A stretch of DNA of 64,000 nucleotides from Candidatus Woesearchaeota archaeon (GCA_016188245.1 JACPIE010000028.1:5704-69703), one strand, 5' to 3'. Positions 29,981-38,525 are shown, counted from the stretch's first letter. Program-made: numbers and translations. Notes: generated from the letters alone by a model not told the origin.

Positions 29981-30960
29981 GCTTTTTTCCTGCTTTTCTT
30001 CTTCGGCTTAATTGAGGATTCTTTAATCACTTCTTTTTGCGCTGATTTTTTCTTTCGGGCAAATGTATAGATCTTCCCGGCTATACCTATAGATAAAAAC
30101 ACAATTCCCAAAATTATTATTGCATGAGTATAGGTTCTCAGAAACAAAAGAAGAGCCACACTTATCAGCGCTTTTGGCTCAATGCCAAACCCTTCTCCAA
30201 ACATGTTCCCGAGGATTGATGTTGTGTCTATCCCGACAAAATTGTCATAAATGACTATCACCATGTACGGCAGCATTATAAAAATTCCGATATTCAAAGA
30301 AATGCCTGCCAATTCCAAAACAAACAATTTTACGTCCATCAACAACAAATACAGCAAAATCAGCAGTATAAGTATGGCGGCAAAATAGACAAGCTTATTG
30401 TTGCTTAAATAATTCATGAATTTAGCATAGCCTTCAAAAACCCCGCTATCCGGAATTTGGCCCGGCATTGCCCCTCCAACAACATCAAAGAAAAACTCCC
30501 TGTCATTTATTTTGCCGGACTTGTAATCCTTGCACAAGCTTCCTATCTTGCTCAAATCAGGTAGCAATGAACTTTTCTGCATTTTATTGCATTGGTTTTC
30601 AATCTCCCCTGATTCTATTTTGCTGCAGCTCTCTCTCACTCTGGCTTCATTTTCAATTTTGGCATTGCTTTTTTTTAGCTCCCGGTAACCTGCACAATCC
30701 TCTTTCATTGACTCAAGCAGGCTTCTGTTGGCGCAAATCTGGCTTATGGTTACCAAGTTTCCCTGCTCCAGCGATGAGCATGACTCTGCCAACTGGCCAA
30801 TTACTTGCTTTTGGGCATCGGGCGAGGCGTATGCAAAAATGTCCCCAAAAATTCCCTTAATCAGGTCCGGAAAATCAAAAGCTACTGAAGAAAAAATCAA
30901 TGTCGCGACAACTAAAACAATAAGAGATTTGACTATTGATATGGGGAATTTTTTTACCAT
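29977..30960 (-). CDS. Polytopic membrane protein with Cys-rich extracytoplasmic domain and Lys-rich tail
   Basis: N-terminal TM, about 150-aa soluble Cys-containing segment, 4-5 TM segments, KKKSRKKA tail. Start overlaps the upstream NTase gene by 7 nt. Confidence 0.35.
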   Translation of the reverse strand: MVKKFPISIVKSLIVLVVATLIFSSVAFDFPDLIKGIFGDIFAYASPDAQKQVIGQLAESCSSLEQGNLVTISQICANRSLLESMKEDCAGYRELKKSNAKIENEARVRESCSKIESGEIENQCNKMQKSSLLPDLSKIGSLCKDYKSGKINDREFFFDVVGGAMPGQIPDSGVFEGYAKFMNYLSNNKLVYFAAILILLILLYLLLMDVKLFVLELAGISLNIGIFIMLPYMVIVIYDNFVGIDTTSILGNMFGEGFGIEPKALISVALLLFLRTYTHAIIILGIVFLSIGIAGKIYTFARKKKSAQKEVIKESSIKPKKKSRKKA

Positions 30961-31472
30961 GAGCCCTCCTGCACAATTCCGTTTAATAAATTTGCCTTGA
31001 ATTCTTCGCTTATTTTGCCTAAACTTACTTCATGCACGCTTATTGCCTTTTTTAATATATTTTCATATTTTGACAAATCCAAATTTAATCTCTTGCTTGT
31101 TATGACAGCAATACCTATGTCTGATTTTTCGATGTCTTCTCCTCTTGAGAAGCTTCCAAACAAGATGATTGTTTTTGGCTGGTTGTATGATTCGGAAAGG
31201 CAGTCTATGATGCCTGATCGGTATATCAGCTCCAAATTATGCAGTCTTTTAAGCCTTGCAAAATCAATGTTTTCCCTGTTTGCAAAAACCTTTGTTATTA
31301 CCTTGCCCTTTTCCTTTATTATTAACCTCTCTTTTGCTAATCTGTCTGTTGCAGAAATGATGGTTGGCATGGATAATTTTAATATTCTGGAAAGCTCTCT
31401 AAGATGGAATTCCCTTGATGGATTATCAAAAAATACCGCTAAAACCTTCTGTATGGTAGATTTTTCTATCAT
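30954..31472 (-). CDS. Winged-helix + minimal nucleotidyltransferase (MNT-like) protein
   Basis: N-terminal FHLRELSRILKLSMPTIISATDRL is wHTH-like. ILFGSFSRGEDIEKSDIGIAV matches the GSxxRGxxxxxSDID NTase motif. Confidence 0.6.
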   Translation of the reverse strand: MIEKSTIQKVLAVFFDNPSREFHLRELSRILKLSMPTIISATDRLAKERLIIKEKGKVITKVFANRENIDFARLKRLHNLELIYRSGIIDCLSESYNQPKTIILFGSFSRGEDIEKSDIGIAVITSKRLNLDLSKYENILKKAISVHEVSLGKISEEFKANLLNGIVQEGSW

Positions 31473-31655: not shown

Positions 31656-31993
31656 AAAAGTTCGTGAAACGTACAATATTAAACGAGCTTTTTTCCCTCG
31701 TAAATTTTGTCCTCGTGAGGATTTTTTTGAGGCAGCCCACAAAAAATCCGAAACAGAGCTGACAAAATTTTCAGAGCTGGAAAAAAGTTAAGTTGAGTGA
31801 AGCGAAGCTACGAAGTGGCGAGCGGAACGAACCGTTTAATATGTGTTATATTCTTTTCCCATGCGTAGTGTGGGAAAACTGCGTCCGCAGACTTTTTCTG
31901 CGCCCAAGTGTGTTTGAGGCGACTTTTATGTAAGAAAAGGGCGTATAATCTACAGAGATTATGCGTAGGCTCAAATAGGATAATGAGGTTAGA
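31656..31993 (+). repeat. Left copy of a block-conserved inverted element (blocks A-D), expanded by hairpin insertions; possible structured ncRNA
   Basis: Blocks AAAAGTTCGTGAAAC (31656-31670), GTGTTATATTC (31843-31853), ACTTTTTCTGCGCCC (31891-31905) and GGATAATGAGGTTAGA (31978-31993) recur in the same order, reverse-complemented, at 38428-38525. The spacers fold into stems, including a 10-bp stem with one G-U pair at 31942-31965. TATAAAT lies at about 31634-31640. Confidence 0.5.
31676..31842. repeat. 167-nt hairpin-forming insertion bounded by 10-nt perfect inverted repeats (MITE-like or inserted RNA helix)
   Basis: ATATTAAACG (31676-31685) pairs with CGTTTAATAT (31833-31842). Inside is a three-tier nested stem: CTTTTTTCC/GGAAAAAAG, AAATTTTGTC/GACAAAATTT and GGATTTTTT/AAAAAATCC (31688-31787). 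Absent from the right copy, where blocks A and B are 2 nt apart. Confidence 0.5.
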
Positions 31994-32068
31994 TACTAGA
32001 GTACTTACGTTAGGCGAACTTTCCCAAATTAAGAAAATTTATAAATCAAAAAATCTTCTTTTTTGTTA

Positions 32069-32749
32069 ATGACAAATACTAAATGGAAAGCTTTTGAGGA
32101 ACTTGTCAAAAAAATTTATGATATATTCCTATCAGAATACGATAAAAATGTTAAGCACGATATTAAAATTAAAGGAAAATCTGGGCTGGAACATCAAATT
32201 GATGTTTTTGTTGAAATTTTTATGCCAATTCTAACAATTAAAGACATAATAGACTGTAAACATTGGAATAGCAGAGTTAAAAAATCTGACGTAAAAGAAA
32301 TTTATACTACTAGGGATGAGGTCAATGCTAATAGGGCTACAATAATTTCTCGTAAGGGATTTCAAAGTGGTGCAATTCAGTTTGCTAAATTTAACGGGAT
32401 TAATTTATATAAAATTCTGAAACCAGAAGAATTGGGATTGCACACTGCTGTTTTTAAGGTAGAAGGCATAAAAGAAGAAGTCATTAAACTTAATGTTCAA
32501 TTAGAAGCTGAAAATCCCGAACAATTAAATCAATTATTTTCAAAATTTCATAAGAAGAAAAATTATAATGAGGTCACGATTTATAACCAAAAAGGAGAAG
32601 CGATAGCAAATGTTTTCGATTTGATGGATGATGCTTTTAGTCATTTGCGAAAAATTCCAGAACCAGGTTTAGAATCTACGACAAGGTTTTTAAATAGTTA
32701 CATGATAATAGATGGCAAGAAAAGAAAGGTTAACTTTATTGAAATATGA
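32069..32749 (+). CDS. Restriction endonuclease-like protein (Mrr_cat type PD-(D/E)xK N-terminal domain + unknown C-terminal domain)
   Basis: WKAFEELVKKIY, GKSGLEHQIDVFVE, IIDCKHW and ATIISRKGFQSGAIQFAKFNGINLY follow the Mrr catalytic-domain pattern. Track start is TTG; ATG is at 32069. Confidence 0.6.
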   Translation: MTNTKWKAFEELVKKIYDIFLSEYDKNVKHDIKIKGKSGLEHQIDVFVEIFMPILTIKDIIDCKHWNSRVKKSDVKEIYTTRDEVNANRATIISRKGFQSGAIQFAKFNGINLYKILKPEELGLHTAVFKVEGIKEEVIKLNVQLEAENPEQLNQLFSKFHKKKNYNEVTIYNQKGEAIANVFDLMDDAFSHLRKIPEPGLESTTRFLNSYMIIDGKKRKVNFIEI

Positions 32750-32879
32750 ATTCAAAAGAGACCAATAAAAACAGAGAGATCTCAAGACATTAAAAATATA
32801 AAATTGCTCATAAACGATGTAGTTAATAACAAAATGTTTCTTGTTGAAAAACCAATTGGATTTGATTTGTTGGAAAAGG

Positions 32880-33647
32880 ATGGAATTTAAATGGGTAGTG
32901 AATAAAGAGGATATAGAAAGATTAAATAATTTCGTAGATAAATTTAAAGGAAATAATTTTGTGAAAGGTAGGGTTAAGAGGAACTTATCCGACAGTATAC
33001 CTCAATTTACTGAATCTGAATTTTGGAAATGGATGATTGGCTGCCTCTTGACAACACAACAGAGATCTGGTCCAAACAGCAGAATTTCTAAATTCTTAAT
33101 AATCACCCCTTTCCCCTTAAGCTATGATTCTTGTAAAAAGACTAAAAATCTTAAGAATTATTCATATGAGGTGCTTACCAAATCAAGAGGAATAAGAAGA
33201 ACAAACAAAATCAGTGAAGAAATTAAATTTAATTTTGATTGGTTGGTGAATGATGGTTGGGAAAAGATTATCAACATTTCAGAAAAGCTTATGGAAGCGA
33301 GGAAACAAAAGCCTTCAACAGAAAACATTAAGGTAGAACGAGAAGCATGCTTACTTGTTCAAGATTTGAAGGGGATAGGACCTAAGCAATCAAGGAATTT
33401 ATGGCAGGCTATGGGTTTAACAAGATATGAGATACCAATTGATAGCAGAATTATAAAATGGTTAAATAAAAATGAATTTCCATTTACTTTATCACCATCT
33501 GGATTATCGGATGAGAACTATTATCAGATGTTAATGGGGGGTATACAGGAATGGTGTGAAAGAGCGGATATTTTTCCTTGCATTTTTGATGCAGCAATAT
33601 TCTCAAGCTATGATGAAGAATGGCCAGAAGATTATGAACTTTGGTGA
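32880..33647 (+). CDS. HhH-GPD superfamily DNA glycosylase-like protein
   Basis: LKGIGPKQSRNLWQAMGLTRYEIPIDSRIIKWL is a helix-hairpin-helix plus a downstream Asp, as in EndoIII/OGG/AGOG enzymes. Track start is TTG; ATG is at 32880. Confidence 0.5.
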   Translation: MEFKWVVNKEDIERLNNFVDKFKGNNFVKGRVKRNLSDSIPQFTESEFWKWMIGCLLTTQQRSGPNSRISKFLIITPFPLSYDSCKKTKNLKNYSYEVLTKSRGIRRTNKISEEIKFNFDWLVNDGWEKIINISEKLMEARKQKPSTENIKVEREACLLVQDLKGIGPKQSRNLWQAMGLTRYEIPIDSRIIKWLNKNEFPFTLSPSGLSDENYYQMLMGGIQEWCERADIFPCIFDAAIFSSYDEEWPEDYELW

Positions 33648-33674
33648 ATATTAAAATTAATTTTTTCAGAAAAA

Positions 33675-34247
33675 ATGAAAAATAAAAAACTCACAATTGA
33701 AGAAAATATAAAAAAATTAAATTATTTTACTAGTATAGCTAAGGAAGCCGAGAAATCTGAGGATTTTCCAACAAAATTGGGTGCCTTGACTATTTATGCC
33801 GGAATGGTGGATTTCTCTGCTATACAAGCAGCAAAAGTTCTCGAACAAGTAATACTAAAATCACAGATAAAATTAAACAAAAGACCCTCATTTAAACCAA
33901 AATCTGATGAATATTTTTATAATTTTCAAGTCCCTAGCAGAAGAATAGGTAGAGTAATAAGCTCTCATTTACCTTTCAGACCCTTAGCTGGAACTAATGA
34001 AGAAAAAGCTCAGGAAATTACTTCTAAAGCTAAAAAATTTTTAGAATCACTGAATAACTTTCTTAATTATCGGAACACTCTGGTTCACCATTTAGGAAAT
34101 TCTAAGTTTAGTAAAGAATATTTATACGAACTACTAAATAAAGCAATATCAAAGTACAAAGAATATGTTATGGCTCATGAAGAATTTATGGACATAATAG
34201 CACCCTACACTCTTACTAAAGAACAAAGAGAAGAACTTTACAAATAG
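33675..34247 (+). CDS. Hypothetical all-helical protein with HEPN-like RNxxxH motif
   Basis: 190 aa; LNYRNTLVHHLGN fits the R-N-x3-H motif of HEPN RNases. No other recognisable feature. Confidence 0.35.
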   Translation: MKNKKLTIEENIKKLNYFTSIAKEAEKSEDFPTKLGALTIYAGMVDFSAIQAAKVLEQVILKSQIKLNKRPSFKPKSDEYFYNFQVPSRRIGRVISSHLPFRPLAGTNEEKAQEITSKAKKFLESLNNFLNYRNTLVHHLGNSKFSKEYLYELLNKAISKYKEYVMAHEEFMDIIAPYTLTKEQREELYK

Positions 34248-34332
34248 AAAATTAGAAAAGATGATATTACTATTATCAATTCAGCTATTATGTTCTCAAA
34301 AATGCCATCTAAAGTTATCATTTTTAGTTAAA

Positions 34333-34995
34333 TCAACCTATATAATCTGGCTTTTCTTTCTTGTTTTTTCTCTCTTGATATTTTCTAATGAAATATCTTA
34401 TTAACCAACGTGAGCCTGCGTATATTGTACATATTAAAGTCAATAGCGTTGTCCATGTCACAAAAAAGGTCAATTTATTTGTGAAATCTTTAGAGCTTTC
34501 AATAATGTAATCCAAGAGTGAAGGATCAGGAATTCGGATAAAATTATAGTAAGTTCCATTAAATCCAACATAAAGCCATGTAGGAATTGTCCGGATTTGT
34601 ATTGTGGTAGTCCCATTAACTAATTTTAGATTTTTTTCATGTAGTTCTTTTCCATTGCCAAAATCATAATACAAATCAGCAGAACAATCTTGGCATGGAA
34701 CACAAACAGGTTCAAAACTACTACATAAGTTTAACGTGATATGTAGCAAATCTCTTTCGCCAAAATTTTCATTATATGCTGCATCAATGTTATATGCTGG
34801 TACTATAGACATCATGCCGGGAATTGGAATCGCTACTCTATCTCCACTCCACCATAAAAATTGCTGATAAAAGAGAAGAGAAACCATCACGAATGAAAGA
34901 AATGCCGTCAGTAAAATTCTTTTTTCTGTAGGAATACCTCTAACAAACTCGTGCATTTTCTCAGCATTGGTTTTATATTTCTTCTTTTTCTTCAT
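34333..34995 (-). CDS. Hypothetical bitopic membrane protein with Cys-rich extracytoplasmic domain
   Basis: 220 aa; TM near the N-terminus and TM near the C-terminus; CSSFEPVCVPCQDCS cluster. Last gene of a 3-gene minus-strand cassette. Confidence 0.35.
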   Translation of the reverse strand: MKKKKKYKTNAEKMHEFVRGIPTEKRILLTAFLSFVMVSLLFYQQFLWWSGDRVAIPIPGMMSIVPAYNIDAAYNENFGERDLLHITLNLCSSFEPVCVPCQDCSADLYYDFGNGKELHEKNLKLVNGTTTIQIRTIPTWLYVGFNGTYYNFIRIPDPSLLDYIIESSKDFTNKLTFFVTWTTLLTLICTIYAGSRWLIRYFIRKYQERKNKKEKPDYIG

Positions 34996-35296
34996 TTATG
35001 TATTCTAGAGCTCTTTTTTTATTCCATTTATGTACTCCTTTTTCTTTAAATTCCACTAATAATGTTGTATTACTAAAATATCGTCCACAAGTATATGCTA
35101 ATAAAACTAAAACAATTATAAAAAAAGGGTATATGACCCAAGTTTCTCCACTTAAGATGGCTCTTAAAAAATCAAAAAAAGTTATGATAAGTACAACTAA
35201 AAAACTAACCATAAAAGCTTGATAAACACTCAACTGTCTCTTTAATTCTGATAATTTTGATTTTTTTACAATATTTAGCATTTTTTCTGCATTCAT
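34973..35296 (-). CDS. Hypothetical small membrane protein (2 TM)
   Basis: 107 aa; overlaps the downstream gene by 23 nt and lies 9 nt after the upstream gene. Confidence 0.3.
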   Translation of the reverse strand: MNAEKMLNIVKKSKLSELKRQLSVYQAFMVSFLVVLIITFFDFLRAILSGETWVIYPFFIIVLVLLAYTCGRYFSNTTLLVEFKEKGVHKWNKKRALEYINEEKEEI

Positions 35297-35305
35297 TTGT
35301 CAAAA

Positions 35306-35986
35306 TCATTTAGTTTCTCTTTTTATAAAATTAACAAATTTATAACCGAATTCATTTTGCCTAAACTCGAGATTTGGTTTATGGAAAAAATGATCATATG
35401 GCATAGAACCAGTATTTGCTTCTCTTTTCAATTGTTCAAATGATTCCCCAACCTTTTCGAAAGCCCGACCAATCGAATCAATATCCCTTTGTACTAAGCC
35501 GTGTCCAGACAGCACATTTATCAAGGATTTTTCTCGTGGATTTAAAAAAGATTCATTAATTATAGTATGATCTTCCTCGTAGATACTTAATAGATAGACA
35601 AGTTCTTCCTCAGATAGTCTATCTAAAATATTAAGAAACGAGAGTTTTTCGTCAAAAGAAATTTTCTTTTTATAAGAATTTATTGCCAAATTTAAATATC
35701 TCTTTCGTTTTTCTTCTCTATTCTCAAAAGCTACCTTTTGAACAAGTTCTCGGATAAATTGTATATTTTCCGCAGATTTCCTAGCATCATCAATCATAAA
35801 CAAAACATCGACTTCATTGATAAATTCTTCCCACCACTCTTTATTTCTTTTACTAAGATATTCAAAGCCCTGAACTAGCAAGGCAAAAGATCCTGTTGTT
35901 GCCCCAACAATCCCCCCAAATAGAATGTCTATTATTGGTGCTACAGTCTTAAAGACTTCAATTCCAAACTCTTTTTTCTCATTCAT
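35306..35986 (-). CDS. Hypothetical protein (N-terminal Gly-rich hydrophobic segment, helical body)
   Basis: 226 aa with ATG start; first gene of the minus-strand cassette. No family recognised. Confidence 0.4.
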   Translation of the reverse strand: MNEKKEFGIEVFKTVAPIIDILFGGIVGATTGSFALLVQGFEYLSKRNKEWWEEFINEVDVLFMIDDARKSAENIQFIRELVQKVAFENREEKRKRYLNLAINSYKKKISFDEKLSFLNILDRLSEEELVYLLSIYEEDHTIINESFLNPREKSLINVLSGHGLVQRDIDSIGRAFEKVGESFEQLKREANTGSMPYDHFFHKPNLEFRQNEFGYKFVNFIKRETK

Positions 35987-36158
35987 TTTTATTTAGTTGG
36001 TTTCTAATCCTTTAAAAAGGCTTCCATACATTACACTGAAAATGTTTGACATAACGTTAACAGAGTATGCAAATATGAGAAACTTACCTATCCAAAAATC
36101 AGTAACCTTTAAATTCCCTTATTCATTCTATTTTCTATAGTAAAAGGGATTGATAATC

Positions 36159-36320
36159 ATGCTTGATTGGGATAAAAAGCAATGGAAATTATTCTGGCTA
36201 GGTAGTACTGGATTTTTCATTATAACTGGTGTTTTTGGGATAATGAGTCAAGTTTGGTATACGATTGCAATCTCGGTAATTATGACATCTATCTCAATTA
36301 TACAATATAAAAAAATTTAA
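36159..36320 (+). CDS. Small membrane protein (53 aa, 2 TM), below the ORF-track cutoff
   Basis: ATG 36159, TAA 36318-36320; translates to MLDWDKKQWKLFWLGSTGFFIITGVFGIMSQVWYTIAISVIMTSISIIQYKKI. Ends 2 nt before the next ATG. Confidence 0.25.
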   Translation: MLDWDKKQWKLFWLGSTGFFIITGVFGIMSQVWYTIAISVIMTSISIIQYKKI

Positions 36321-36322
36321 TC

Positions 36323-37429
36323 ATGAGTAAAGAAGAGCTAGATAGGAAAATTTCTGAATTCAGGGATTTTTTAGAGAAAAATAATTTTCCTGTTGTGAAT
36401 TTAATATTTGAAAATTTTCTTAGTGGGAAAATAAAAAACAAATTCTTAGATTTAGTTAAATTATCAAAAAAAGTAGATACCTCAAAACAGGAAAACGAAA
36501 TAAAATTTGATTTAATAAAACTACTCGATAGAATCGTTAGATTAGATCCAACAAGAATTAAGAAATATTATCTTTGGGATATTGCTGTTGAAGAAAAAAC
36601 AGATTTTGTATTTGAGAAATTCCCAGAGGTAAAAGAATTATTGGACGAAGATGGGCTTATTCAAATACCTTACAACTCTGATTTAAATAAGAATGGATTC
36701 AGATACAAGGATAGTTATCTAATTTTTGAGAATGCTTACAGCAGAAATTTTCATCTAACACAATGGTTAATAGAAAATTGGAAAAATAATTTTGTACTAA
36801 AACTTCCGATTAACAAAAACTGTTTAGGAGTTTCTGAAACAAGGAGACAAGTAGAATTACTTTCTCATTGGCAAGGTCCTAAAACAATTAATCAAATTAA
36901 AGAATCTTTAGCGGGAAAGGAATTTGTCGTGAAAGGCCCAAGTTTTTTTGATGCACCTTTGATGGATAAAACAGAGTTCTTATTTAATTCACGAGATAAT
37001 AAGTGGCATTTGCAAATTGAGGAGTTGTTACCTCTAGACGGCATTGAACTTGGAACAATAATTAATTATCAAGACAAAGAACATAAATTTTATACTAGGT
37101 ATCTACATGCAATTACTAACAAAAATCTGTCAGAATGTTTTCATATGGATGGTGGAATAAGAGTTTACAAAACTTATGAAAATTTTGAAAGGAGGAATAA
37201 ATCTGAATTAAAAGATTCTAGCATAACAAGTTACTCAGATAGATATAAATTTTTTAGAGTAGATTCAGAAAGTGGAATTTCATCCTTTCAAGAGATTATT
37301 GGTTTGTTTTTCATAGCAAACCCTTATGTTTTAGAGTTTTTTGATGGAGAAAGTAATTTCACCAAAGATTTAGAAAAAAACAGAACAGGCATTTTAGAAA
37401 TAGATTTTAAGTATAAAAAATTCAATTAA
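36323..37429 (+). CDS. Hypothetical soluble protein, 368 aa
   Basis: Long ATG-initiated ORF in an A+T-rich context where stop codons are frequent. No family recognised. Confidence 0.45.
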   Translation: MSKEELDRKISEFRDFLEKNNFPVVNLIFENFLSGKIKNKFLDLVKLSKKVDTSKQENEIKFDLIKLLDRIVRLDPTRIKKYYLWDIAVEEKTDFVFEKFPEVKELLDEDGLIQIPYNSDLNKNGFRYKDSYLIFENAYSRNFHLTQWLIENWKNNFVLKLPINKNCLGVSETRRQVELLSHWQGPKTINQIKESLAGKEFVVKGPSFFDAPLMDKTEFLFNSRDNKWHLQIEELLPLDGIELGTIINYQDKEHKFYTRYLHAITNKNLSECFHMDGGIRVYKTYENFERRNKSELKDSSITSYSDRYKFFRVDSESGISSFQEIIGLFFIANPYVLEFFDGESNFTKDLEKNRTGILEIDFKYKKFN

Positions 37430-37483
37430 TTAACAAGTTAAATAAAGTAATCCTTAAATACATATTGATATTTGTAAAAATTT

Positions 37484-38407
37484 ATGAATAATATAATAAT
37501 AAATGCTTCGAATGGAATCAACGCTTCTATATCTATTTTAAACAACAATCCACCTATAAATTATTCTATAATAGAAAGTATAGCAAATAATGCTGTTTCA
37601 ACTTTAACAAGTGCTAATACGGCTTTTATTGATCCTTACTGGTTTTATAGTGCCGCTGCACAATCTGCCGCAGCAATTGTTGGTCTTATGGGTGCTTTCT
37701 TAACCACTAAAATCATAAGTATACATAGTCAGAAAAAACAATTAAAACAGAATATTTCGACTTACAAAAATCAGATAGAGTTTATAGAAAAAGAAATAAA
37801 ACCATTTCAAGAATGGATAAAAAAAATTGATGAGGATGAAGAAAGAAAAAATGTTATAAAATTCTTGGATGAAATAAAAGAAACAATAAATCTAGATAAT
37901 CCCCCAGAGTTTGAATCAATTCTGAAAGAAGCAAGAGAATCTGAAGATTTTAAAGACATCAGTGAAGAAATTCTAAAAGAAGAGTACAATGAAGAATTTT
38001 TTAATTCAGTAAGAAACTATCGCCGTACGCCACCTTTTGCTAGGGGACTCTCTAACTTATTCACTTCAAATTTAGACGCAACTAGAGATAAATGGAATAG
38101 GTATCGAGAATATTCTGATTATATAGATAAAAAATTAGTAGAAGTTGAATCACTCAAAAAATTAATTTCCATAAAAGAAGATGAAATAAAAAGTCTAGTA
38201 ACACTAAAGGAGTTAAGAGATAACATTTTTTCACTAATAATATTTTCTATATTGGGTGTTGTTGTCCCATTAACTTTATTAATGTTGAATTATGAGACAA
38301 TGCTTAAATGGCGATTAATCGTTCTTGCTCTTTTTATTTTTGGATTAAGTCTTGTTGTTGTTACTATTAGCAATGAAATAAGAAAAATATTTTCAAGCAA
38401 ATATTGA
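37484..38407 (+). CDS. Hypothetical membrane protein: TM - long coiled coil - two C-terminal TM segments
   Basis: 307 aa; hydrophobic AAAQSAAAIVGLMGAFLTTKII, an E/K-rich heptad-like middle, and a C-terminal LIIFSILGVVVPLTLLML / LIVLALFIFGLSLVVV. Confidence 0.4.
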   Translation: MNNIIINASNGINASISILNNNPPINYSIIESIANNAVSTLTSANTAFIDPYWFYSAAAQSAAAIVGLMGAFLTTKIISIHSQKKQLKQNISTYKNQIEFIEKEIKPFQEWIKKIDEDEERKNVIKFLDEIKETINLDNPPEFESILKEARESEDFKDISEEILKEEYNEEFFNSVRNYRRTPPFARGLSNLFTSNLDATRDKWNRYREYSDYIDKKLVEVESLKKLISIKEDEIKSLVTLKELRDNIFSLIIFSILGVVVPLTLLMLNYETMLKWRLIVLALFIFGLSLVVVTISNEIRKIFSSKY

Positions 38408-38427
38408 TACATAAAACAAATAAATAG

Positions 38428-38525
38428 TCTAACCTCATTATCCGTTAGTCTTTCTTTCTCTTAAGAGAAACAGTAATCGAAGGGGCGCAGAAAAAGTGAA
38501 TATAACACTAGTTTCACGAACTTTT
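38428..38525 (-). repeat. Right (compact) copy of the block-conserved inverted element
   Basis: Reverse complements of blocks D (38428-38443), C (38483-38497), B (38498-38508) and A (38511-38525). The C-D spacer contains a 16-nt perfect palindrome TTTCTCTTAAGAGAAA (38455-38470). Confidence 0.5.

Follow-up and report, generated by a model that had tools for sequence, protein, structure and literature searches.

A Mrr-like nuclease, an Ogg2-like DNA glycosylase and a candidate HEPN RNase side by side in a low-GC island of a Woesearchaeota archaeon

Three consecutive open reading frames (ORFs) lie on the plus strand at the left edge of a low-GC island in the DNA analysed here, a stretch of 64,000 nucleotides (nt) from the metagenome-assembled genome of a Candidatus Woesearchaeota archaeon (GCA_016188245.1, JACPIE010000028.1:5704-69703; "the window", with positions counted from its first letter). 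The GC content is 27-32% from about 31.9 to 38.5 kb, compared to about 41% in the flanks. We refer to the ORFs (32069-34247) as genes A, B and C (Table 1). An original prediction, made from the sequence alone, had interpreted them as the parts of one modification-sensing defence module. ORF calls reproduce the coordinates given there, and all motifs quoted for the proteins, i.e., IDVFVE and DCKHW in gene A, GIGPK...IPIDSRI in gene B and LNYRNTLVHH in gene C, are found.

The real start of gene B is the ATG at 32880, with which the length of the closest homologues and the NCBI gene call agree; the NCBI record identical to its protein (Candidatus Woesearchaeota archaeon) bears the name hypothetical protein, and this host bears out the DPANN-type origin given in the original prediction. 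Intact gene A (see below) overlaps gene B by 11 nt, from which we infer that one transcript probably carries both genes in this lineage, with their translation coupled, and a gap of 27 nt separates genes B and C. If TTTATAAA is a real TATA box, its short distance from the gene A ATG would make the transcript leaderless or nearly so.

Table 1. Features of the three-gene locus and of the island borders (aa, amino acids)
Feature	Position	Strand	Remarks
Left arm of perfect 16-nt inverted repeat, GGATAATGAGGTTAGA	31978..31993	+	at left GC boundary of island
Candidate archaeal TATA box, TTTATAAA	32039..32046	+	read from sequence, about 23-30 nt 5' of gene A ATG
Gene A, window allele, 226 aa	32069..32749	+	Mrr_cat PD-(D/E)xK nuclease, premature TGA
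Gene A tail, last 47 codons in frame after TGA	32750..32890	+	translated in CGA allele
Gene B, 255 aa	32880..33647	+	Ogg2-like HhH-GPD glycosylase, probable AP lyase; ORF opens at 32841
Gene C, 190 aa	33675..34247	+	four-helix protein (predicted), FLxxR133-N134-xxx-H138
Right arm of 16-nt inverted repeat, GGATAATGAGGTTAGA	38428..38443	-	at right GC boundary of island

The N-terminal part of gene A (residues 3-114) matches the Pfam family Mrr_cat (PF04471) with E 2e-9 and 38 bits, against a cut-off of 21. Its predicted nuclease residues are E10/E11, D45 and D62-x-K64; across six homologues D45, C63 and K64 are invariant, and position 62 is either D or E. The type IV-restriction-like PD-(D/E)xK domain claimed for the first gene is thus borne out by a profile match above the cut-off and by the conserved D...(D/E)xK residues. 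The unknown C-terminal domain claimed alongside likewise stands, as the C-terminal region of about 160 residues gave only weak matches in Pfam, NCBIfam and PADLOC and could be placed in no family there. The gene A family is small, with six clusters among 5.8 billion proteins. Gene A itself is a Mrr-family, type IV-like PD-(D/E)xK endonuclease with a C-terminal domain of its own, presumably cutting foreign and probably modified DNA.

The window carries a shortened version of this gene. For comparison we used four Logan assemblies from related samples (L005-L008), which are at least 99.95% identical to the window over 31977-38457. A T at 32747 creates the TGA codon at 32747-32749 in the window and in L008; L005, L006 and L007 have a C at this position and accordingly CGA in place of TGA, which yields an intact gene A of 273 aa (32069-32890). 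The homologues P0124-P0127 are 270-274 aa long and keep the tail (...KLLIHDVVNNKMFLVEKP...). Because CGA is present in three of the four near-identical contigs and the homologues have full length with a conserved tail, we regard the window copy as a nonsense allele, the product of which would lack the conserved last 47 residues.

Structure comparison places gene B with the helix-hairpin-helix (HhH)-GPD DNA glycosylases. Its AlphaFold2 model (pLDDT 92.7, pTM 0.90) has a two-domain, all-alpha fold, and the top Foldseek matches are almost entirely glycosylases of this type. The best matches in the Protein Data Bank (PDB) are the three solved Ogg2 enzymes, namely MjOgg (3KNT; E 7e-5, TM query/target 0.64/0.77), SsOgg (3FHG; E 9e-4, TM 0.57/0.68) and Tm1821 (3N0U; E 1.2e-3, TM 0.58-0.63/0.69-0.75), followed by OGG1, EndoIII and ROS1. 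A search of PDB with the single gene B sequence returned noise only. The profile of the gene B family matches the MjOgg sequence with E 0.0025 and aligns G-F-G-P-K169 opposite G-I-G-Y-K and I-P-I-D188 opposite A-I-I-D of MjOgg; the 3KNT chain, in which the catalytic Lys is mutated to Gln, scores lower with this profile. K169 belongs to the HhH motif LKGIGPKQSRN and D188 to the Asp motif IPIDSRI. Both residues are invariant in an alignment of 44 sequences, where the blocks CLLTTQQRSGP, LKGFGPKQSRNL, EIPIDSRI and PC-x-LDAAIFS are conserved as well. The Lys motif is present in 120 of 120 B-family sequences and the Asp motif in 116 of them, always 19 residues downstream. The glycosylase-like character proposed for the second gene is supported by this Ogg2 fold and by the alignment of Lys and Asp to MjOgg, and the catalytic pocket is not missing, since fold and catalytic residues are both present. 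Sequence and model together indicate that gene B is an Ogg2-like HhH-GPD glycosylase with an intact bifunctional Lys-Asp dyad and a probable AP (apurinic/apyrimidinic) lyase.

However, the C-terminus of gene B departs from that of Ogg2. In the latter, a strictly conserved C-terminal Lys reads N7-H with its carboxylate and thereby separates 8-oxoguanine (8-oxoG) from guanine, and its removal leads to loss of 8-oxoG excision with AP-lyase activity kept (PMC3397491). Gene B ends in Trp, as do 101 of the 120 family sequences, and none of these ends in Lys. We interpret this replacement as an indication that gene B is not a canonical Ogg2 and that its substrate probably differs from Ogg2-style 8-oxoG. 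The Pfam model Ogg-HhH (PF22175) scores gene B below threshold (15.8 bits against a cut-off of 27, E 0.01), and a precomputed match to it is carried by few B-family members only. Scans of PADLOC, NCBIfam and PHROGs gave nothing usable for gene B or gene C.

The gene B family, a sister family of Ogg2, is large and patchily distributed. It comprises at least 1450 protein clusters from archaea and a wide range of bacterial phyla, with a typical length of 249-255 aa. When one genome per species was scanned with a sequence pattern, the family was detected in at least 149 of 185,579 species, with 38-65% identity to the window protein, among them Bacteroidota, Planctomycetota, Nitrospirota, Desulfobacterota, Proteobacteria, Patescibacteria, Methanosarcinales, Aenigmatarchaeota and others. 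The neighbourhoods were surveyed at 80 genome loci and at metagenome loci for all ORFs within 6 kb. Among the neighbours of defence type are DUF2779/PDC-S11 (3-4 loci), type I restriction endonucleases (2-3), HNH_2 (2), McrBC, Shedu SduA_C, ThsB-TIR, Old/GajA-like proteins, RmuC, Nmad2 (2), DUF6946 (2) and a NucC-like nuclease; integrases, transposases and insertion sequence (IS) elements represent the mobile genes. Two copies on plasmids, annotated as hypothetical proteins, are set among IS elements.

Patchily spread and strongly conserved between domains, set in AT-rich or mobile surroundings and frequently next to defence genes, the family can be compared with Dag1 and Dag2, stand-alone HhH glycosylases with a Lys-Asp pair, which act against phages with 7-deazaguanine-modified DNA and reside in AT-rich mobile regions; the Dag study relied on mobile elements, defence genes and AT-rich context to tell antiviral members of the HhH glycosylases apart from those with housekeeping roles (bioRxiv 10.1101/2025.10.29.685425). 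The genomic profile of gene B suggests a Dag-like defence glycosylase, in so far as context, which is not proof, can do so.

Two further ideas were rejected, a conserved gene B operon because all-against-all BLAST clusters of about 1860 neighbouring ORFs include no family in more than five of about 84 loci, and a phage gene because the family occurs in none of 50,697 phage genomes and in two of 2.9 million viral contigs, one of which equals in length a bacterial genome contig in L044 and is probably identical with it.

Some individual loci deserve description. The most recurrent neighbours of gene B are DUF2779/Cas4-like proteins of about 500 aa, found at four of about 84 loci (L004, L017, L036, L061), overlapping upstream of gene B in L004 and directly downstream of it in L036 and L061; they probably account for the PADLOC PDC-S11 matches. 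At the locus of the closest relative (L001, 3837-5929) gene B comes after a NucC-like DUF6602 nuclease and a protein of 435 aa that faintly matches QueC/PP-loop, with a type I HsdR upstream and a tyrosine integrase downstream. On a plasmid of the halophilic archaeon DL31 (L111, 5986-7627) gene B is convergent with a DUF159 gene, which we take to be of the SRAP/YedK family and involved in abasic-site processing; ISH3 and IS4 transposases surround the pair, and orc1/cdc6 is adjacent.

Relatives of gene C are few. A word-index search found two, an exhaustive HMMER scan with a three-sequence profile 56 representative clusters, and a metagenome scan with an alignment of eight sequences four loci; among PDB sequences, a profile of the family matched designed coiled coils only. 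Among 31 diverse full-length members the most conserved positions are Q51, E57, Q58, K62, F81, R89, F129, L130, R133, N134 and H138. The family signature is FLxxRNxxxH, in which R133, N134 and H138 are conserved in at least 90% of the members, and E57 and K62 are nearly invariant in helix 2 with the spacing E-x4-K. An AlphaFold2 model predicts four helices (8-26, 31-66, 109-139 and 147-179), with a poorly ordered insert (67-108) separating helices 2 and 3 and RNTLVH at the very end of helix 3.

HEPN domains are described as four-helix bundles, often with an insert between helices 2 and 3, with an Rx4-6H motif in which a polar residue, mostly N, D or H, follows the Arg, and with a conserved acidic residue in helix 2 (PMC3710099). 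In its sequence and predicted structure gene C fits these hallmarks in the site of the motif, the polar residue, the helix 2-3 insert and the helix-2 Glu. The only Pfam families matched by more than one member of the gene C family are HEPN families, each below threshold, i.e., HEPN_RiboL-PSP (three members, E 0.036) and HEPN_MAE_28990 (two members, best E 0.0013), and HEPN_Apea is the top match of the family consensus (E 0.011, below the gathering threshold). We consider it likely that gene C is a HEPN protein, a call that draws on motif conservation, predicted topology and weak profile matches. The third gene had been described as a helical protein with RNxxxH, and the motif indeed lies where the HEPN motif belongs, at the end of helix 3 in a four-helix bundle, in a model of moderate confidence. 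As far as sequence comparison can tell, the motifs of all three proteins go beyond chance, given the E value of 2e-9 for Mrr_cat, the constancy of Lys (120/120) and Asp (116/120) in the B family and the conservation of R133, N134 and H138 at 90% or more in the C family.

Only three positions vary between the window and the four Logan assemblies, and none of the variants is silent. Besides the nonsense/sense difference at 32747, which decides between 226 and 273 aa, there is a change from Pro to Leu in the gene A tail (32853) and one from His138 to Tyr in gene C of L007 (34086), at the nearly invariant HEPN histidine. This absence of silent changes suggests that selection on the genes is relaxed or inactivating in the population. 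Two of the genes are potentially self-toxic, and loss-of-function variants in them would fit a rapid turnover of costly defence genes, with tiny numbers on which to judge.

The trio is known only from contigs at least 99.95% identical to the window. None of the 80 genome loci with a gene B homologue has an ORF similar to gene A or gene C within 6 kb (phmmer, E < 1e-3). The closest gene A homologue with a usable flank (L091, 61% identical) has no gene B within about 590 nt downstream, as searched by tblastn, and its next gene lies on the opposite strand; another, P0127, adjoins a C5 DNA methylase, a HATPase_c_3 protein and a transposase. The gene C homologues in L009, L010, L093 and L095 likewise have unrelated neighbours and neither a gene A nor a gene B. 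In L093 gene C stands among glycosyltransferases, and in L095 among a methyltransferase, a PLP-dependent enzyme, a NUDIX protein and a Mur ligase. L009 (663-1707) corresponds to 33674-34721 of the window, with 90% nucleotide identity over gene C and the convergent downstream membrane gene. The similarity ends exactly at the gene C start codon, and an unrelated membrane protein of 120 aa stands in for gene B. This break implies a recombination breakpoint between genes B and C, so that C is not linked to B. The three-gene modification-sensing module of the original prediction is therefore unsupported: the genes do not travel together, and their families co-occur in no unrelated genome among the B loci, the C loci and L091. 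A defence island that combines type IV-like restriction, a glycosylase and HEPN is, as a wider framing, reasonable and agrees with themes in the literature, where HEPN genes inside restriction-modification loci have been described (PMC3710099).

On balance we lean towards reading the locus as part of a defence-type patchwork island with three single-gene modules that are independent of one another, and not as a three-component system. The variable low-GC island of 6.5 kb (31978-38443) would have been acquired horizontally and would have gathered three independently mobile modules that target nucleic acids and share one island by chance. We infer the substrates and the defence role as follows. 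Gene B would most likely flip out and excise a non-canonical base other than classic 8-oxoG and nick the strand, and as a stand-alone, Dag-like antiviral glycosylase it would be directed against base-modified viral DNA. Gene C would be a stand-alone, metal-independent RNase of the HEPN type, acting as a toxin or abortive-infection effector, with R133, N134 and H138 together with E57 in helix 2 as its putative catalytic residues. Genes A and B may act additively on the same invader, in a partnership that is not conserved.

Several observations weigh against this interpretation. The 11-nt overlap of A and B and the 27-nt gap between B and C fit an operon. In three of the closest archaeal-type homologues, gene B directly follows PD-(D/E)xK nucleases of different families, which hints at a non-random pairing: Mrr_cat in the window, DUF6602 in L001 (71-nt gap to B; PADLOC PD_DExK/NucC-like, E 4e-38) and DUF2779/Cas4-like in L004 (43-nt overlap with B). 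No PADLOC model matches gene B or gene C. The gene C model derives from three sequences only (mean pLDDT 75.8), and Foldseek searches with it against PDB and BFVD returned generic helical bundles (E > 0.03) and no HEPN structure. Finally, many gene B homologues adjoin genes for AMP/thymidine phosphorylase, urocanase, amylase, peptidase M3, YceG, or ScpA together with ribosomal genes, and such ordinary metabolic neighbours mean that gene B could be a mobile repair enzyme and not a defence gene.

We also considered alternatives. For gene C, the RNxxxH motif might be non-catalytic and the protein a generic helical bundle with a structural or adaptor function, or a membrane-associated partner of the convergent membrane gene (34333-34995). 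The Foldseek results favour this, as does the position of every Pfam HEPN match below the gathering threshold, and in L009 gene C does travel with the downstream membrane gene. Yet nowhere else is the family as conserved as at R133, N134 and H138, and the published HEPN definition is matched by their site at the end of helix 3, by the polar residue that follows the Arg, by the insert and by the acidic residue in helix 2. Moreover, the only Pfam matches shared by several members are HEPN, and a third HEPN family tops the consensus search. We regard the generic bundle as unlikely, albeit as a serious candidate, and keep to the HEPN assignment.

A mobile repair role is the main alternative to the antiviral reading of gene B. 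Gene B would then serve base-excision repair as a glycosylase that spreads horizontally and acts on oxidised or alkylated bases, its proximity to genes A and C would be coincidental, and the island would be a collection of mixed accessory genes rather than a defence island as such. The Ogg2 fold with the intact bifunctional dyad is what such an enzyme would have, JGI pipelines call some family members "thermostable 8-oxoguanine DNA glycosylase", and housekeeping genes are common beside gene B. The DUF159 neighbour on the DL31 plasmid points the same way if its presumed SRAP role holds, and reduced DPANN genomes could plausibly gain repair genes laterally. Against this stands the very patchy spread over unrelated phyla (at least 149 of 185,579 species), with an identity of 38-50% between bacteria and archaea. 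The island around gene B is of low GC content, IS elements flank the plasmid copies, defence genes recur as neighbours of the gene, and the Lys that defines the C-terminus of Ogg2 is replaced by Trp. Such features separated Dag from housekeeping glycosylases. A repair enzyme thus appears to us an improbable, if respectable, explanation, and the Dag-like glycosylase remains our preference.

It would be harder still to reconcile with the data that A and B, possibly with C, form a cooperative, lineage-specific module for sensing modification, which we consider distinctly unlikely. Gene B would here recognise or excise a modified viral base, the exchangeable upstream PD-(D/E)xK nuclease would make the double-strand break, and gene C would serve as a back-up RNase. 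A precedent for joining a nuclease with a HhH sensor is provided by the END nucleases, which attack hypermodified phage DNA and consist of a nuclease and, fused to it, an inactivated EndoIII/Ogg-like sensor (PMC12191111); A and B would be their unfused counterpart. Such a module would account for the overlap of intact A with B, the short distance to C and the other PD-(D/E)xK nucleases directly preceding the closest archaeal homologues (L001, L004), and it can draw on DUF2779/PDC-S11 beside gene B in four loci and on the same-strand B, Macro and Mrr_cat genes of L102/L103 described below. However, about 90% of the surveyed gene B loci have no adjacent nuclease. None is found beside the close homologues L099 (72% identical), L011 (65%) and L101 (60%), and L099 and L011 (AMP/thymidine phosphorylase) lie beside housekeeping genes. 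No A- or C-family gene lies near any other surveyed gene B homologue, gene A of L091 has no B within the searched distance, and the C homologues have none either. Gene B keeps its own dyad and so needs no partner nuclease, and since nucleases are the commonest content of defence islands, some chance adjacency is to be expected. The homology break in L009 further shows recombination between B and C. Most doubtful of all is the broader, combined view that the gene B family as a whole consists of unrecognised pan-prokaryotic antiviral glycosylases and at the same time supplies, in DPANN and other archaea, the sensor or excision half of a two-gene module beside an interchangeable upstream nuclease, as unfused, active counterparts of END. 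Independent single-gene modules thus continue to be the interpretation that we favour.

Apart from the window, L102 (2298-4300) and L103 (918-2920) are the only locus with gene B and a Mrr_cat gene as neighbours. A gene B homologue (55% identical), a Macro-domain protein of 168 aa and a nuclease of Mrr_cat/NA-iREase1 type of 202 aa are encoded there on one strand in this order, and this Mrr_cat gene differs from gene A.

The borders of the island carry the inverted repeat GGATAATGAGGTTAGA, of which only two copies occur in the 64 kb (0.04 expected). Two further short blocks, GTGTTATATTC and CTTTTTCTGCGCCC, lie outside the repeat arms with their order kept. Logan contigs begin at 31977 or 31993, four independent ones end at 38457-38460 and others read through; several independent contigs break within 1-17 nt of the repeats. 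This points to structurally heterogeneous island borders. A simple inversion at the 16-nt repeats was rejected, as the contig ends (31977/31993 and 38457/38460) do not fit a clean inversion in a k=31 graph. There is no tRNA gene in the window and there are no direct repeats at the island borders, a Pfam scan of the island proteins revealed no integrase or transposase family, and Rfam has no match in 31-39 kb.

The remainder of the island (34333-38407) encodes membrane proteins of 220 aa and 107 aa, the latter with a weak 2TM match, a 226-aa protein with a weak match to Abi_alpha (E 1e-4), a 368-aa protein that matches no family significantly, and a coiled-coil protein of 307 aa for which a membrane segment is predicted at the C-terminus. 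They, too, may be candidates for a role in defence or abortive infection. Just outside the island, a MNT-type nucleotidyltransferase with an N-terminal wHTH-like region is encoded on the minus strand (30954-31472; Pfam Polbeta 9e-9, PADLOC PDC-M05A 2e-15), with an overlap of 7 nt between its start and the end of the neighbouring gene for a membrane protein. No HEPN partner adjoins it, and gene C, on the opposite strand at a distance of 2.2 kb, is the sole HEPN-like gene in the vicinity. An exact look-up of its protein, aimed at a variant of the site without the island, gave no record.

As all three genes are of known kinds, their novelty lies at the level of uncharacterised families. The gene B family, together with its occasional pairing with interchangeable PD-(D/E)xK nucleases, is in our view the most interesting part. 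It represents a concrete candidate for extending antiviral HhH glycosylases to archaea and many bacterial phyla or, alternatively, for a new repair specificity. The gene C family adds a small candidate HEPN family, which stays below threshold in all libraries searched and has a clear putative catalytic motif. The nonsense allele of the nuclease and the His-to-Tyr variant of the HEPN candidate within one DPANN population may offer a small, direct view of the turnover of defence genes.

Each of the three genes resembles a known system in part. Gene A shares with Mrr and the type IV restriction endonucleases the Mrr_cat domain and the retained D...(D/E)xK residues. E. coli Mrr has an N-terminal winged-helix sensor. 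In contrast to Mrr, the nuclease domain of gene A comes first and is followed by the C-terminal region of about 160 residues that matches no family; moreover, the family of six clusters is small and the window allele is truncated.

Gene C has in common with the stand-alone HEPN RNases (ApeA, RiboL-PSP, MAE_28990; PMC3710099) a predicted four-helix bundle with a helix 2-3 insert, an R-N-x3-H motif where helix 3 ends, the conserved helix-2 Glu and adjacent restriction-type genes. It differs from them in reaching no HEPN Pfam threshold (best E 0.0013-0.036), in the spacing of the helix-2 acidic/basic pair, which is E-x4-K and not E-x3-[KR], and in having no extra N-terminal sensor domain as in ApeA. 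Nor is it adjoined by a MNT or other antitoxin gene.

For gene B, the Ogg2 enzymes (MjOgg 3KNT/3FHF, SsOgg 3FHG, Tm1821 3N0U) provide the closest structures, with the same two-domain HhH-GPD fold (TM 0.57-0.64 by query and 0.68-0.77 by target), the catalytic Lys in G-x-G-x-K and the Asp about 19 residues downstream. However, gene B is only 14-21% identical to them and about 45 residues longer, falls below the Pfam Ogg-HhH threshold, has a conserved Trp in place of the C-terminal Lys and carries signatures of its own (CLLTTQQRSGP, PC-x-LDAAIFS). The END nucleases likewise combine a nuclease with an Ogg/EndoIII-like HhH domain in a defence context, and the HhH domain occurs there with varied nucleases, as gene B does beside Mrr, NucC-like and DUF2779 proteins. 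In contrast to END, A and B are separate genes with a pairing that is not conserved, and gene B keeps the catalytic residues that the END sensor lacks. Brig1 (PMC11078745) has a different fold (UDG) from that of gene B. The closest parallel in genomic setting is with Dag1/Dag2 and related integron-encoded glycosylases, compared here by description: gene B is likewise a single-gene HhH protein with a Lys-Asp pair and a conserved Trp nearby, situated in an AT-rich mobile region, patchily spread and accompanied by defence and mobile genes. The Dag families were defined in integrons of Vibrionaceae, whereas the gene B family is pan-prokaryotic and includes DPANN archaea.

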